Positions 59,457-64,000 of a DNA stretch of 64,000 nucleotides are shown piece after piece. Source of the stretch: a virus; IMG/VR virus record IMGVR_UViG_3300046787_000316, positions 64,001 to 128,000 of that record, one strand, 5' to 3'. Position 1 is the stretch's first letter; each line of letters opens with the position of its first letter. The notes under the pieces are model-generated. The model saw nothing but the letters and a program-made list of their open reading frames with translations, did no database searches and was not told the origin of the DNA. The position numbers and the translations under genes were made by a program.

Positions 59457-60023
59457 TTAGATTATTGTTTTTTTAGATATATCCATTGCATATTTTTCAC
59501 CCCTTGGAAATGATACATCATCTAAATTATCAATTGAAATGTAATTTTGAAGTAATTTAAACCCATCCCCATAATATAAACTTTCGTAAGTAATTTTGAA
59601 ATAGTTTGGATTATTAATGAAATCATTAGTAATACCATTTGTTACTCTATCGAATTGCTGTATTATTTCCAAATCATCTACTATGGTATTTGAATCATAC
59701 TTCCATGCGTTATTCCACTTACCCGTCAACATAGCATTATTAAATGATAGTAATTGCTCTCGTTTGTTCTCTCTATATAATACGATTATCTTATCCGAAA
59801 TGGATAATAATTTAGAATAGTCTATATCATATTGATATATTTCTTTTACGAATAAATGTTCAGTATCGTATTTCCATTGAGTTGGGCACACGCCATTCTT
59901 AAACCACTTTAAAGTTGAATTAGTAATAGGTTCGTATAATGTTGTGAATTTGGTTTGATTATAAAACCAATTAGCTAAATTAGTAGAGCCGCTTCTTGGT
60001 TCAGCAATCACTGTAATGACCAT
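59457..60023 (-). CDS. Sulfotransferase-like (Stf0-type P-loop) protein
   Basis: AEPRSGSTNL, LYEPI, VLYREN, ITYESLY. Confidence 0.7.
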   Translation of the reverse strand: MVITVIAEPRSGSTNLANWFYNQTKFTTLYEPITNSTLKWFKNGVCPTQWKYDTEHLFVKEIYQYDIDYSKLLSISDKIIVLYRENKREQLLSFNNAMLTGKWNNAWKYDSNTIVDDLEIIQQFDRVTNGITNDFINNPNYFKITYESLYYGDGFKLLQNYISIDNLDDVSFPRGEKYAMDISKKTII

Positions 60024-60027
60024 AATA

Positions 60028-60135
60028 CTATGTGTGCTTAACTTTTATTAAGTTAATTACAGTTTGTATCATTGCTAAACATTTTTCTTTTTGTGTAATT
60101 GTTAGTGGTTTAACCACTTTAACTATATTTCCCAT
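60028..60135 (-). CDS. 35-aa peptide
   Basis: MGNIVKVVKPLTITQKEKCLAMIQTVINLIKVKHT; fills the gap between 60143 and 60023 with 7- and 4-nt spacers. Confidence 0.6.
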   Translation of the reverse strand: MGNIVKVVKPLTITQKEKCLAMIQTVINLIKVKHT

Positions 60136-60142
60136 ATATTAA

Positions 60143-61528
60143 TTATTTTTGATTTGGGCAATAATTGTGAATTACCAAGGTATTTAAAATCTCATTGGAA
60201 TTAGTCCCAGCTATAAATACATCGGATGGTTCTATATCTATCGTTGTTATTGAACCTGTGAAGTATTCATTATCAATAGATGTAATAGTGGATGTAATAT
60301 CCGATGAGTTAAAAATGGTATCGCCTTCTACTAAATCAATTACATTTTTAAACTTCACTACGCCATCAACGTTTACCAATAACATTTTTCCCGTTGGTAA
60401 TAATGAATATCCGACATTATCCCCATTTGTATATGTAATTTTATTCAACCAATCTTCAGTCGGTTTATGTATAATACTAACTACCGATGCGCTGGTATAT
60501 GATATAAGTGATTCAACACTTCCTGTATATTCCCATTCAAATGTCTGCTGTCTATTGAAATCATATCCAAGTGTATCTATTAATAGTGCTTTAACATTAT
60601 CACCAATTTGAATATCAGCCGCAGCTGTTTCGATAAAACTTCCATCTTCCTGCATCACATCAATTTTATAATCGGATGGGATACCTTCATCAGATACTCT
60701 GTTTGGATTTGAAAAAAACATATATCTTGATTTGTTGTTTAATTTCAAATCAGTATATTCGATAATTGTTTCATCCAATGGTATTTGATTAGAATGCAAA
60801 TATCCACCCAAATCTATAATTTCCGAAAGTTGGTTTGTTATGAGATACCACTGCCTAATGTGAGTAGTTATTGAACCACTTTCTATATTAGTTGGAGAAA
60901 ATTTATATTCTTGCAAAAACAAACCAGTATTCAAATTTGACTTAACGGATTCAAGTTCATCCAAAGTATCTACCTTTATAAATTCGGGATACATTGATTT
61001 ATCAAAATCAGGTAATTGTTTTTTAGAAATTAAATTAGGTATTTCGCCATTATCGTTTATAGATGTAAGAGTATCTAAAACTTCACCATTGTAAGTAGTA
61101 AATGTTTTTGGAAGTATGCTTCCCGAACCACCTTCAAATAATAAATTTATTAATTCATTTTTATCTCTACAATATGTATCATCTAATATTGCTTGCGCAT
61201 TATATGCAAACCTTAAATTTAATGTAGAACTATCATCCGTATAAGAAGGTATTGTTACTCCATTAGCTGGGATTATAATTTCATCAAATATAACATTATT
61301 TAATGTACATTTTTCTTTTATAATATCGACAACAAATTTAGATACAAATTGAGATTTATATATAATACGAAGAGTTGAGAACTCATTCGATACTATATAG
61401 TTAAAAAGACCATCGAAATCAAAATAAGAACTCTTAGCATAAGACAGATTAATATCTGTATTCATTTCTAAAAGTAAAATATCTTCATCGGTTGTAATGA
61501 AGTCAACACCTAATAATACACTGTTCAT
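60143..61528 (-). CDS. Circularly permuted ATP-grasp-like ligase fused to a C-terminal Hint domain
   Basis: N-terminal GVDF...LLEMN, then LPKTF, ISKKQLP, FLQEY; Hint-like GIPSDYKI...DIQIGDNV...IDIEPSDVFIAG...VIHN. Confidence 0.65.
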   Translation of the reverse strand: MNSVLLGVDFITTDEDILLLEMNTDINLSYAKSSYFDFDGLFNYIVSNEFSTLRIIYKSQFVSKFVVDIIKEKCTLNNVIFDEIIIPANGVTIPSYTDDSSTLNLRFAYNAQAILDDTYCRDKNELINLLFEGGSGSILPKTFTTYNGEVLDTLTSINDNGEIPNLISKKQLPDFDKSMYPEFIKVDTLDELESVKSNLNTGLFLQEYKFSPTNIESGSITTHIRQWYLITNQLSEIIDLGGYLHSNQIPLDETIIEYTDLKLNNKSRYMFFSNPNRVSDEGIPSDYKIDVMQEDGSFIETAAADIQIGDNVKALLIDTLGYDFNRQQTFEWEYTGSVESLISYTSASVVSIIHKPTEDWLNKITYTNGDNVGYSLLPTGKMLLVNVDGVVKFKNVIDLVEGDTIFNSSDITSTITSIDNEYFTGSITTIDIEPSDVFIAGTNSNEILNTLVIHNYCPNQK

Positions 61529-61581
61529 AATTGTAAATCTATATAGTATATATATCTCTAAAAAATAAAAATATCAAAGGA

Positions 61582-62175
61582 TTACATCAATACCTTACTA
61601 TCTTTTCTGTATTTTTTGGATGGATTCATATATTCAAATGCATCGTTATAATTCAAACCGCATCCGATACTTTCAAATGTATTTTTTGCTAATTCAAAAT
61701 TTGTAGAGTATAAATCCTCATACCATATCATCGGCAAGTTGGTTATTTTTTGAAAATGAATAATTAAATCAATATATTGATTGACGGTATCCATATATTC
61801 GATATCCATTACCGATGGGTTATGTATATATGTTCCATGCCATACTGTGAATCCATCGTAATATCCATTTCGCTCTATAATTTCTTTACACTTCGATATA
61901 CCATTACACTCACTTTCCCAACTAGCAATTCTATCACGTCTACTTATTAATATAGTTTTATCAAATGTTTTAGAAAATTCCCACAACTCTTCAATACTAT
62001 TGTGTTGATTTATTAATGTTTTTAAAACAACATTTTTTTGATATGGGTTATATAGATTATATGACGCATTTGGATTGAATGGTTCTATTATTTGTTTTAA
62101 ATTTAGTGTAGAAGCAATTGCATTGGTTAATGTAGTTGTCCCACTTCTAGCAGTGCCGATTATTAGTATTTTCAT
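61582..62175 (-). CDS. Sulfotransferase-like protein
   Basis: GTARSGTTTL, IEPFNP, ISRRD, IWYEDLY. Confidence 0.7.
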   Translation of the reverse strand: MKILIIGTARSGTTTLTNAIASTLNLKQIIEPFNPNASYNLYNPYQKNVVLKTLINQHNSIEELWEFSKTFDKTILISRRDRIASWESECNGISKCKEIIERNGYYDGFTVWHGTYIHNPSVMDIEYMDTVNQYIDLIIHFQKITNLPMIWYEDLYSTNFELAKNTFESIGCGLNYNDAFEYMNPSKKYRKDSKVLM

Positions 62176-62648
62176 ATTATACTCCTTGTAATAACTTCGC
62201 CATAAAACTTATTTATCATTTCAACATCATTATAATGTTTTATGGAATTACTATCGCCATTCTTTATCAATTCACTCTTATTATAATGTATATCGGATAG
62301 TTTCGCCATTCGTATCTCACAATCACCCATATCAATTAAATCGTATGTTTGATTATCTACCAAATAGAATGCGCCAAATTTGTTATTCTTTTTGAACCAA
62401 TATGTTTTATTTATAAGTCCAAATTTCTGCTCCCCTATAAATGTAAAATTATAATGATTCTGTAAAATTTCAAAATATTTAATATCGGATGTATTTAATG
62501 CTAGATTTAGATTACCAACATTTCTAGCTATTATATTGTGATAACGTAATACGGATGAACCGCCTAATATTATATTTCCATCTGTTAAATTATGAAAATC
62601 GTTAAATATAATATTATTAAAATCACTAGTGAAGTTCAGTTGTATCAT
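62172..62648 (-). CDS. Minimal nucleotidyltransferase-fold protein (acidic motif degenerate)
   Basis: ILGGSSVL...RNVGNLNLAL...KHYND. Confidence 0.45.
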   Translation of the reverse strand: MIQLNFTSDFNNIIFNDFHNLTDGNIILGGSSVLRYHNIIARNVGNLNLALNTSDIKYFEILQNHYNFTFIGEQKFGLINKTYWFKKNNKFGAFYLVDNQTYDLIDMGDCEIRMAKLSDIHYNKSELIKNGDSNSIKHYNDVEMINKFYGEVITRSII

Positions 62649-62649
62649 A

Positions 62650-62871
62650 TTATTTTATTGTATTCTTTCGTAATCCGTATTTAATCCACTTATACCAAAT
62701 TCGTTCGTGAATATAATATTGAATCGGCTTATATACCAATTCTGCAATACCAAACGCAGTTCCAACTTTAATTGAACCACTTATCCACCACATTAAGATA
62801 AACCCTATCAAGGTACTTAAAATACGATATGATATGGTTTTGGCTATATGTCTTTTTCTCGTAACTATCAT
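62650..62871 (-). CDS. DUF2061-like small membrane protein
   Basis: KRHIAKTISYRILSTL...YYIHERIWYK. Confidence 0.8.
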   Translation of the reverse strand: MIVTRKRHIAKTISYRILSTLIGFILMWWISGSIKVGTAFGIAELVYKPIQYYIHERIWYKWIKYGLRKNTIK

Positions 62872-63377
62872 ATTAATCCAATTTGATTATTTGAAATATT
62901 TTTTCTATATCGTTCATTTGAATTTTTATCAAAGATATCCTCGTAATATGTTATTGGGATATTTAATGTATTACTAAGAACAAGCAATTCGGAATCCCAA
63001 CGAATGATATCGACTTCGTATTTCTCTACATTTGGTGGAGTTTTCCATACATAATGTTTTAATGAATTGAAATTTTTATGATTGTGATGCTGGAGATATG
63101 CCCAGCTTTCCGAACACTCTTTTAAATCTCGTCTACTTAAAAGTATGACTTTATCAAATTCCTTAACTAATTCAATATATGCATCAATCGCCGTATCAAA
63201 CCCATTAGGACAATGATACATCATAGTTTTAACAACAACATCAGTTGGGAGAATACCATACCTATATCGTTTTGGGTCAAATGGTTCAAATATAAATGGT
63301 ATCCGATATTCTTCACTATACCGACTCATTAATGAAGTTGAGCCGGTTCTCGGAAGAGCTATTATTAATATTCTCAT
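62868..63377 (-). CDS. Sulfotransferase-like protein
   Basis: ALPRTGSTSL, FEPFDP, LSRRD, TYYEDIF. Confidence 0.7.
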   Translation of the reverse strand: MRILIIALPRTGSTSLMSRYSEEYRIPFIFEPFDPKRYRYGILPTDVVVKTMMYHCPNGFDTAIDAYIELVKEFDKVILLSRRDLKECSESWAYLQHHNHKNFNSLKHYVWKTPPNVEKYEVDIIRWDSELLVLSNTLNIPITYYEDIFDKNSNERYRKNISNNQIGLI

Positions 63378-63757
63378 TATCCTTTAGTTTCATCATAAGT
63401 AATAGTGCCATCCGGCATCATGTGACCTGTTCTAATAGCAGTTCCGCTTATCTGTGCAACATCGGTTGGCGGTTCGTGGTAGATAACATCATACCCCACA
63501 CCTCTTCCATAATTGATTGATTCAATATCGGGAATAATTGATAATAATACCTTATCCCAATTATTCATAAAGAATGGTTCGTTCATTAGTTCTATCATAA
63601 CTTGGTGAGCAGTTTTCGGATTATTCCCATCAACCTCCACATCTCTAATTGCAACCCAAACATACTTTCCCTTTTCCAATTGTTGGTTAATCAGCCATTC
63701 GTGTCCTTTATGCCAATTTTGCCAACGTCCTACATACATTGCGTACTTTTTACTCAT
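63377..63757 (-). CDS. HxGH (cytidylyltransferase-like) nucleotidyltransferase
   Basis: YVGRWQNWHKGH, ISGTAIR. Confidence 0.8.
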   Translation of the reverse strand: MSKKYAMYVGRWQNWHKGHEWLINQQLEKGKYVWVAIRDVEVDGNNPKTAHQVMIELMNEPFFMNNWDKVLLSIIPDIESINYGRGVGYDVIYHEPPTDVAQISGTAIRTGHMMPDGTITYDETKG

Positions 63758-63763
63758 TGTTTT

Positions 63764-64000
63764 TTAATTTAATTTATCAATAATTTTGGTGAGTTCATCA
63801 TTAAATCCATTTCTGATTATCATTTGTTTCCATTGGTCTACTTTAAATAATCTAAATTCTTCGTTATTATTAACTACACTCTTATCTAACCAAATATGGT
63901 CGAACCCAACCGGCTTTTCATTGTGTGTTTGTGGAATATCAATCCATTGTGGGAGATATCCTACACCATCCACCATCCCATCGTAAAATTGTACGTGAGT
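63764..64000 (-). CDS. Hypothetical protein (partial, starts beyond window end)
   Basis: Frame open from 64000 (THVQFYDGMVDGVGY...) to the stop at 63764. Confidence 0.6.
   Translation of the reverse strand, partial: THVQFYDGMVDGVGYLPQWIDIPQTHNEKPVGFDHIWLDKSVVNNNEEFRLFKVDQWKQMIIRNGFNDELTKIIDKLN

Follow-up and report, generated by a model that had tools for sequence, protein, structure and literature searches.

A viral protein that joins a circularly permuted ATP-grasp ligase to a Hint domain without its N-terminal nucleophile, and its tiny partner gene, as a possible system for joining or releasing small peptides

What might be the function of a viral protein in which an ATP-grasp ligase is fused to a Hint domain that lacks its first nucleophile, which ends only six residues after that domain, and which is followed by a gene for a peptide of 35 amino acids? 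The question is raised by an open reading frame (ORF) of 461 codons in the stretch of DNA analysed here (the window), namely the 64,000 nucleotides that represent bases 64001-128000 of one 137,364-bp contig from IMG/VR (record IMGVR_UViG_3300046787_000316). We refer to this ORF as the ligase-Hint gene, and the features of the locus are collected in Table 1. A preliminary description of the same DNA had pointed out the sequence details on which much of the present analysis turns (the ATP-grasp motifs, G282, PTGK, D436, H454-N455 and the terminal YCPNQK), and all of them are present in the ORF. It had also proposed a permuted ATP-grasp fold for the N-terminal region, a Hint fold for the C-terminal region and a conserved adjacent peptide, and these proposals are borne out by the results given below. 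The explanation that we favor, with a probability of about one half, is that cyclization of Asn455 would cut a Lys-bearing tail off the protein and that the ligase would make an amide bond with this tail, with the partner peptide or with both.

The N-terminal 281 residues, folded alone with an alignment of 100 sequences, gave a model with a predicted local distance difference test (pLDDT) score of 94.5, and the model shows a three-subdomain ATP-grasp fold in which the Mg2+ hairpin comes before the nucleotide-binding part. In agreement with the order of motifs that had been noted earlier, the protein opens with GVDF (residues 7-10) and LLLEMN (residues 18-23), and K58, K169, K196 and the Q206-E207-Y208 motif come only after them. 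A Foldseek comparison of the domain with YgiC returned an E value of 9.5e-8, and the best match found with VIA had a Z score of 9.1 over 207 residues. Among the 48,161 PDB representatives compared by VIA, the eleven best chains (Z 7.1-9.1, with ~200-225 aligned residues) all belong to the permuted group of glutathione synthetases and glutathionylspermidine synthetase (GspS); they are YgiC, nematode effectors resembling glutathione synthetase, GspS, Cp1B, trypanothione synthetase, eukaryotic glutathione synthetases and two others annotated as putative GspS and gamma-glutamylcysteine synthetases. In these comparisons YgiC, GspS, the glutathione synthetases, Cp1B and trypanothione synthetase align to residues 1-277 of the model, whereas classical ATP-grasp enzymes (TTLL, ArgX/LysX, RimK, DcsG, Ddl, PurD) align only from residues 48-52 onward. 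Since the permuted enzymes are the only ones to cover residues 1-48, the N-terminal hairpin is collinear with the permuted class only, and on the strength of the model we confidently assign residues 1-278 to the circularly permuted ATP-grasp class that is represented by YgiC, GspS and the eukaryotic glutathione synthetases.

The residues expected of such an enzyme are conserved across the family. In 100 sequences that reach down to ~20% identity, M1, D9, E21, N23, R106 and D116 are invariant, and T24, Y109, A113, Y119, L129, P164, K169 and R225 are kept in at least 90%; the invariance of M1 means that the N-terminus is genuine and not the result of truncation. By this conservation the domain has both the D...E-x-N set of Mg2+ ligands and the phosphate-binding Lys/Arg residues of its class. 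In the trypanothione synthetase of Leishmania, Mg2+ is bound by D330, E344 and N346 and the phosphates by K513, K548 and R613 (PMC2427367), and these residues map to D9, E21, N23, K169, approximately K196, and R268 of the phage protein by alignment offsets rather than by residue-level superposition. Searches with the protein and 14 of its relatives matched no curated family (GSP_synth, GSH_synth_ATP or CP_ATPgrasp), nor any other Pfam family at E values up to 1. The domain is nevertheless very probably an active carboxylate-amine ligase and, because its Mg2+- and ATP-binding residues are conserved family-wide, it probably converts a carboxylate to an acyl-phosphate and then transfers the acyl group to an amine. 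Among its structural neighbors, YgiC and YjfC ligate peptides to spermidine (cited in PMC12568646), and Cp1B joins a diacid to an amino acid (PMC12568646).

The C-terminal part of the protein has the fold of a Hint domain, with structural matches to BIL domains, inteins and the Hedgehog autoprocessing domain (Foldseek E 4.8e-7). Aligned by VIA with the BIL domain of C. thermocellum, it covers 136 of 138 residues at a root-mean-square deviation of 1.9 A (Z 16.6), with residue 282 of the model placed on intein residue 1, and a profile search of the PDB matches it to the Mja KlbA intein (E 5e-4). Position 1 of the domain is G282 (in GIPSDYKI) rather than Cys, Ser or Thr, and the block-B position, as defined by a hidden Markov model alignment to the KlbA intein, reads P378-T379-G380-K381 rather than TxxH. 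Neither change is peculiar to this phage: among 99 relatives position 1 is occupied by G, K, H, Y or a gap, with no conserved Cys, Ser or Thr, and the block-B position is unconserved across the family. The terminal dyad, on the other side of the domain, is retained in nearly all of these 99 diverse homologues (His in 97, Asn in 99) amid flanking columns that vary freely, and block-F residue D436 is Asp in 75 of them and His in 16. Among the 120 closest homologues, which we call the near clade, 112 have the dyad HN and 7 have YN by pattern match, and one more YN lies outside the pattern. With both the position-1 nucleophile and the block-B TxxH lost, the domain cannot splice or form an N-terminal thioester; what is kept and what is lost is consistent with a domain that is unable to initiate splicing but would still carry out Asn cyclization and C-terminal cleavage.

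The phage domain falls outside the recognized classes of inteins. It has neither the position-1 nucleophile nor the block-B motif of class 1 (G282 and PTGK stand in their places), and inteins in general have a C-extein that begins with a Cys, Ser or Thr, while here the +1 residue is Tyr and the near-clade tails extend for only 1-9 residues. A class 2 or class 3 mechanism was considered and rejected, as Cys is absent both from the +1 position and from block F. With the A-type BIL domains it shares a terminal His-Asn without a +1 nucleophile, for which reason cleavage is to be expected rather than splicing, but it does not share their thioester-forming N-terminal Cys, the corresponding position being Gly282 here and variable and non-nucleophilic family-wide.

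The fusion of the two domains is present in every full-length member among the 150 best representatives from an exhaustive search, the shorter matches spanning only part of the profile. That search found 351 homologues and a word-indexed search found 139; every relative found is viral, and the neighbors in the Atlas are 96-100% viral. Backbone genes of the related phages are mostly 60-85% identical, whereas the ligase-Hint proteins are only 25-40% identical, and the protein is either fast-evolving or exchanged between phages. An AlphaFold2 model of the full-length protein, based on a 74-sequence alignment, reached a pLDDT of 84.5 and a predicted template modeling score of 0.79, and the matches to either domain far exceed what chance would give.

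The segment that follows the His-Asn dyad provides the most informative comparison within the family. Members of the near clade are 455-465 residues long, except for outliers of 419, 426 and 463 residues and two extended forms, and 117 of the 120 have tails of 1-9 residues that are hypervariable in sequence. Lys is found in all 117 of these tails and is the terminal residue in 73, the +1 residue is Tyr or Phe in 86, and 47 of the tails consist of just YK or FK. The preliminary description had envisaged a short Cys peptide after the dyad, and this cannot be upheld as a conserved feature: Cys occurs in 26 of the 117 tails, many are just YK or FK, and it is Lys that occurs in all. In the broad set of homologues the tails are of four kinds, namely cysteine-rich peptides of 21-84 residues, such peptides followed by a canonical Cys-starting Hint domain, one to three canonical Hint domains placed directly after the dyad, or a self-cleaving chaperone of the Peptidase_S74 type. 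The number of Cys residues in the cysteine-rich tails is always even (6, 8, 10 or 12, and once 4), and the earlier idea of a released peptide gains support because the tails of the distant relatives are of this kind and length. All 66 tails shorter than 90 residues in the broad set contain Lys, where 47 would be expected from composition, and 49 of them contain exactly one. The sequence that follows a terminal canonical Hint domain usually ends in HN-K.

The Peptidase_S74 domain, an intramolecular chaperone otherwise typical of phage tail spikes and fibres, ends the relatives P0117, P0150, P0153, P0159 and P0200 (for example at L005:6001-7638); it was identified by a Pfam scan of P0117 and read from the SD.RLK.NI motif in the others. 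Its self-cleavage would again leave a Lys near the new C-terminus. So read, the junction after Asn455 appears to be a site at which detachable units are exchanged, with lysine as their common denominator, and the YCPNQK tail of the present protein looks like a minimal or vestigial form of such a unit. To the preliminary description we can add that, in terms of what is conserved, the short-tailed clade shows the cysteine-rich peptide to be dispensable, and the His-Asn dyad, the Lys and the partner gene not to be.

The partner gene was detected wherever the ligase-Hint gene was examined in its genomic context. A homologous ORF of 24-38 codons lies on the same strand after the ligase-Hint gene in 64 of 64 loci (63 loci from IMG/VR and the window); its start is 1-58 nt past the ligase-Hint stop codon in 62 of them, the window with its 7 nt included, as had been reported earlier. 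The remaining two loci are the sole cases in which the pair is separated, by an inserted 69-codon gene for a predicted membrane protein (L007:7860-8069 and L009:7107-7316). The 44 unique sequences of the small ORF align as a single family, with a Thr, an acidic-or-Gln position, a hydrophobic run that includes one invariant Ile, and a C-terminus of the form [N/H]-[S/T]; the peptide encoded in the window ends in KHT. By the conservation of its homologues across loci, the small ORF is a real and conserved partner gene. Gaps of 7 nt between the ligase-Hint gene and the small ORF, and of 4 nt between the latter and the next, sulfotransferase-like gene, suggest that the three genes are co-transcribed. 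The peptide matched nothing meaningful in the Atlas or in a profile search of the PDB. Some of the small ORFs have an end (...LIVTANS) that recalls block G of Hint domains, and the possibility that they encode a split C-terminal Hint fragment was rejected after an hhalign comparison with the ligase-Hint alignment, in which no part of that protein was found to be similar to them.

The favored explanation can now be stated as a series of steps. Asn455 would cyclize to a succinimide and cut the Asn455-Tyr456 bond, thereby freeing YCPNQK; the ligase would activate the C-terminal carboxylate of a peptide, most likely that of the 35-residue partner; and the activated carboxylate would be joined to an amine of the tail, which might be that of the Lys side chain or else the alpha-amine that the cut lays bare. 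Self-cleavage by the Hint domain would in that case release the product or time the reaction. Lysine appears to be the only feature common to all of the tails, from YK to the 84-residue cysteine-rich peptides, and the parts of the partner peptide that appear to be strongly conserved are only its hydrophobic core and its C-terminus. In its most specific form, the proposal describes a phage-borne machine for joining peptides within a single polypeptide, whose nucleophile-less Hint domain would free or expose the Lys tail and whose ligase would bond that tail, through an amide or isopeptide, to the C-terminus of the partner of 24-38 residues; we regard this form as tentative and rather unlikely. 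Observed directly are the two-domain architecture, the conservation of catalytic residues, the presence of the partner gene and the make-up of the tails, whereas every chemical step in this scheme is inferred.

Several considerations weigh against the favored explanation. The ligase domain belongs to no family in Pfam, PHROG or any other classification at the sequence level, and its structural Z scores of 7-9 are only moderate. The last 11 residues of the full-length model, the His-Asn dyad among them, have a pLDDT of only ~30. Block B, which aids many inteins, is absent from the ligase-Hint protein, and isolated C-terminal cleavage is slow in many inteins. The pairing of the ligase with the small peptide is drawn from the adjacency of their genes in phages that share ancestry and synteny. 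Finally, a tail of two residues such as YK or FK would be odd as a cargo, and the release of the tail is perhaps not the point.

The alternative that survives best, although we consider it unlikely, is that the Hint domain does nothing more than free the tail as a pro-peptide, in the style of the Pretoxin-Hint domains, while the ligase acts on unrelated small molecules (a thiol, a polyamine or an amino acid) and the small ORF has a role of its own. The hypervariable 21-84-residue tails of distant relatives, with their even numbers of Cys, are typical of disulfide-rich peptides that are released, and the structural neighbors of the ligase do act on small molecules. A role in cargo release alone is hard to reconcile with the near clade, in which the supposed cargo is 1-9 residues long and often just YK or FK, yet neither the His-Asn dyad nor the ligase residues nor the small ORF have been lost, or with the retention of the fusion in all of the full-length members among the 150 best representatives.

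It is improbable, in our estimation, that the system is one of autoinhibition, in which the Lys tail would occupy the amine site of the ligase as a pseudo-substrate until Asn cyclization removed it and so switched the enzyme on. A precedent exists in the trypanothione synthetase-amidase of Leishmania, whose C-terminus blocks its own active site (PMC2427367); moreover, Lys is universal in the tails and resembles the polyamine substrates of GspS and YgiC. Such a switch would leave the 21-84-residue cysteine-rich tails and the added self-cleaving modules unexplained, and no structural evidence places the tail, which is unmodelled, in the active site.

About as improbable is a Hint domain that is catalytically dead and serves only for docking or recognition of the small peptide or of tailoring enzymes, its His-Asn dyad being structural. 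The loss of the position-1 nucleophile and of block B, together with the poor modeling of the His-Asn strand, would agree with such a role, but the retention of His and Asn at 97-99% amid freely varying neighbors is hard to explain on structural grounds, the block-F residue is also kept as an acidic residue or His (75 Asp and 16 His at D436), and modules that cleave themselves, either canonical Hint or S74, recur exactly at the junction that follows the dyad. We regard it as very improbable that the Hint domain bears no functional relation to the ligase, whether as a selfish intein-like element in decay or as a likeness due to chance, in spite of the canonical, probably mobile, Hint domains of some relatives, since the fold match has a Z of 16.6, the nucleophile-less Hint domain is found at the same place in every full-length member of the family, and the absence of both a homing endonuclease and a +1 nucleophile means that the domain is not an intein.

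Table 1. Features of the ligase-Hint locus and its nearest neighbors, in coordinates of the window
Feature	Coordinates	Strand	Basis
Ligase-Hint gene (AGH), 461 aa	60143..61528	minus	ORF; stop codon 60143-60145
Circularly permuted ATP-grasp ligase domain (assigned by modeling), residues 1-278	60695..61528	minus	Fold model, structure matches
N-terminal beta-hairpin with predicted Mg2+ ligands D9, E21, N23	61460..61504	minus	Conservation, alignment offsets
Hint domain without N-terminal nucleophile, residues 282-455	60164..60685	minus	Structure and profile matches
Terminal His454-Asn455 dyad, predicted site of Asn cyclization/C-terminal cleavage	60164..60169	minus	Conservation
Six-residue tail YCPNQK after His-Asn	60146..60163	minus	Sequence
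35-aa partner peptide gene	60028..60135	minus	Conserved ORF, starts 7 nt after ligase-Hint stop
Sulfotransferase-like gene ST188, 188 aa	59457..60023	minus	PRSGST P-loop-like motif; relatives in 24 loci
Sulfotransferase-like gene ST197, 197 aa, 53 nt upstream	61582..62175	minus	Weak Sulfotransfer_3 match; relatives in 21 loci
Sulfotransferase-like paralogue ST169, 169 aa	62868..63377	minus	Aligns with the other two; relatives in 33 loci

The genes that surround the ligase-Hint gene form a variable island. Sulfotransferase-like genes had been described as flanking it, and they are indeed present on both sides, but their likeness to sulfotransferases is of modest significance only: the profile of their family (A4) matches the NodH sulfotransferase with an E value of 8e-4, and of 10 members of the A4 family 4 match Sulfotransfer_3, at best with E 1.7e-4. 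The order of genes in related phages is HxGH transferase, DUF2061, ligase-Hint gene, small ORF, variable island, HD phosphohydrolase and then backbone genes. In the window, the gene for a DUF2061 membrane protein (62650-62871; Pfam E 8e-15) and that for a 126-residue HxGH/ISGTxxR nucleotidyltransferase-like protein (63377-63757) have the sulfotransferase-like genes and orf158 inserted around them; in 27 or 28 related loci the two genes are neighbors, with identities of 46-84%, and in most of these they lie directly upstream of the ligase-Hint gene. The island extends past base 64000, as indicated by genes upstream for a 78-residue zinc-ribbon protein (65490-65726), which is a homologue of the island's 98-residue Cys protein, and a 221-residue GDSL/SGNH-like protein (69000-69665).

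The islands of distant relatives encode 2-oxoglutarate (2OG)-Fe(II) oxygenases, a radical S-adenosylmethionine (SAM) enzyme, and SGNH-like, zinc-ribbon and sulfotransferase-like proteins. Far-clade islands such as that at L031:7627-12580, situated beside relatives with cysteine-rich tails, encode a radical SAM enzyme (PF04055) along with two or three 2OG-Fe(II) oxygenases (PF13640), a set that resembles peptide-tailoring enzymes. A radical SAM gene is found in ~30 of 49 far-clade loci as compared with 2 of 15 near-clade loci, a comparison confounded by shared ancestry. The island of the present phage is poorer, with the three sulfotransferase-like paralogues and orf158, and no radical SAM gene was found anywhere in the 137,364-bp contig.

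Many island proteins carry a common C-terminal tag with the consensus K-K-K-[T/S/K]-L-[I/L], which was found in 328 of 709 unique ORFs of the loci (L001-L063); its versions in the window (positions 59457-63377) are KKTII (ST188), SKVLM (ST197), IGLI (ST169) and RSII (orf158). Endings in [L/I]-I might have been a by-product of ATGA start/stop overlaps, an explanation that we rejected: only 68 of the 328 such ends overlap the next start, and the tag is therefore a motif at the level of the protein. It resembles a class I PDZ-type ligand ([S/T]-x-hydrophobic). A scan for promoters and terminators found sites no more numerous than in shuffled sequence, and a repeated intergenic promoter-like motif was discarded as well, its repetition being not above chance.

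The window is AT-rich (GC ~0.31), and its minus strand holds nearly all of the genes. Neighbors of the ligase-Hint gene within it include those for a gp55-like late sigma factor, peptide deformylase, UvdE and an HD phosphohydrolase. For a backbone gene, the nearest cultured relatives, among them Pelagibacter phage Mosig and several jumbo phages, are 27-38% identical. We read the source as an uncultured aquatic, marine T4-like myophage.

Searches of Pfam and PHROGs with the ligase-Hint protein gave nothing usable, and neither this protein nor a distant relative had any match when 50,697 GenBank phage records were searched by tblastn. Patterns specific to the near clade, and hence of limited sensitivity, picked up no relative when scanned against 185,579 prokaryote genomes. 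The papers searched for on combinations of ATP-grasp, Hint domain, phage or cyanophage do not describe the ligase-Hint layout. Both folds are familiar; what the literature and family libraries searched do not describe is that the two are fused, that the fusion is strictly paired with a micro-gene and that it has a detachable Lys-bearing tail. The ligase-Hint protein and its tiny gene may represent a new way of joining or releasing small peptides. A Hint domain that hundreds of viral proteins conserve in a form reduced to C-terminal cleavage would amount to a naturally occurring release module of the Asn-lyase kind, which in its coupling to a ligase could be a compact tool for the ligation or tagging of peptides. 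The hypervariable islands in which aquatic T4-like phages carry tailoring enzymes would also, in part, gain a function, and the short-tailed clade is a limit case (His-Asn, one Lys, the partner gene and no cysteine-rich peptide) that points to the essentials. If the most specific form of the proposal is true, the product in the relatives would be a composite, cysteine-rich and enzymatically tailored peptide, and the system would represent ribosomal peptide maturation or tagging of a new class, with the enzyme itself as a "leader" that removes itself.

Comparisons with known systems can be made for each half of the protein. The permuted ligases (YgiC/YjfC, GspS, trypanothione synthetase, eukaryotic glutathione synthetase and Cp1B) have the same order of elements, with the Mg2+ hairpin before the nucleotide-binding lysines, and the carboxylate that they link to an amine is the C-terminal one of a peptide or belongs to a diacid (PMC2427367; PMC12568646). 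The phage domain differs from them in that it starts at the hairpin, without their long N-terminal region, and is only ~280 residues long, and it has no relation to them at the sequence level that would yield a Pfam match at E up to 1. In the amino-group carrier system of LysW/LysX and ArgX, and in RimK and the tubulin tyrosine ligases, ATP-grasp enzymes act on the C-terminus of a small carrier protein encoded nearby or of another protein. These enzymes are weaker structural matches to the phage domain (Z 5.8-6.5 for LysX/ArgX, RimK and TTLL), and they differ in their classical, non-permuted order, in having no Hint domain and in the acidic (Glu) C-termini on which they act, as opposed to the [N/H]-[S/T] ending of the partner peptide. 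Assignment to the graspetide (microviridin-type) systems of ribosomally synthesized and post-translationally modified peptides was rejected: the phage ligase is of the permuted GspS class and not of the RimK type, and YCPNQK, like 26 of the 66 tails shorter than 90 residues in the broad set, has no acidic residue, where a graspetide precursor has core repeats of Thr/Ser/Lys and Asp/Glu.

For the Hint domain, the A-type BIL domains (2LWY of C. thermocellum; 6Y75 and 6TMM, BUBL BIL2 of Tetrahymena) are the best structural matches, with Z scores of 16.0-16.6. With Cys1 and block B retained, they are able to form a thioester at the N-terminus, whereas the phage domain has Gly1, has no TxxH and is fused to a ligase. 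The class 2 inteins, represented by Mja KlbA (2JMZ), which is the sole significant match to a PDB sequence, likewise do without a nucleophile at position 1; KlbA splices by means of its +1 Cys, whereas in the phage family no extein follows, and the +1 residue is Tyr or Phe in 86 of the 117 near-clade tails. The Pretoxin-Hint domains (PF07591) of polymorphic toxins resemble the phage domain in their placement ahead of a hypervariable C-terminal unit that they would release, and the extra Hint domains of the relatives match PF07591, while the first Hint domain of the ligase-Hint family matches no Pfam model. They differ in what lies on either side: a polymorphic toxin has an N-terminal region for secretion or delivery where the phage protein has an enzyme, and toxin domains where the phage family has tiny or cysteine-rich peptide tails.

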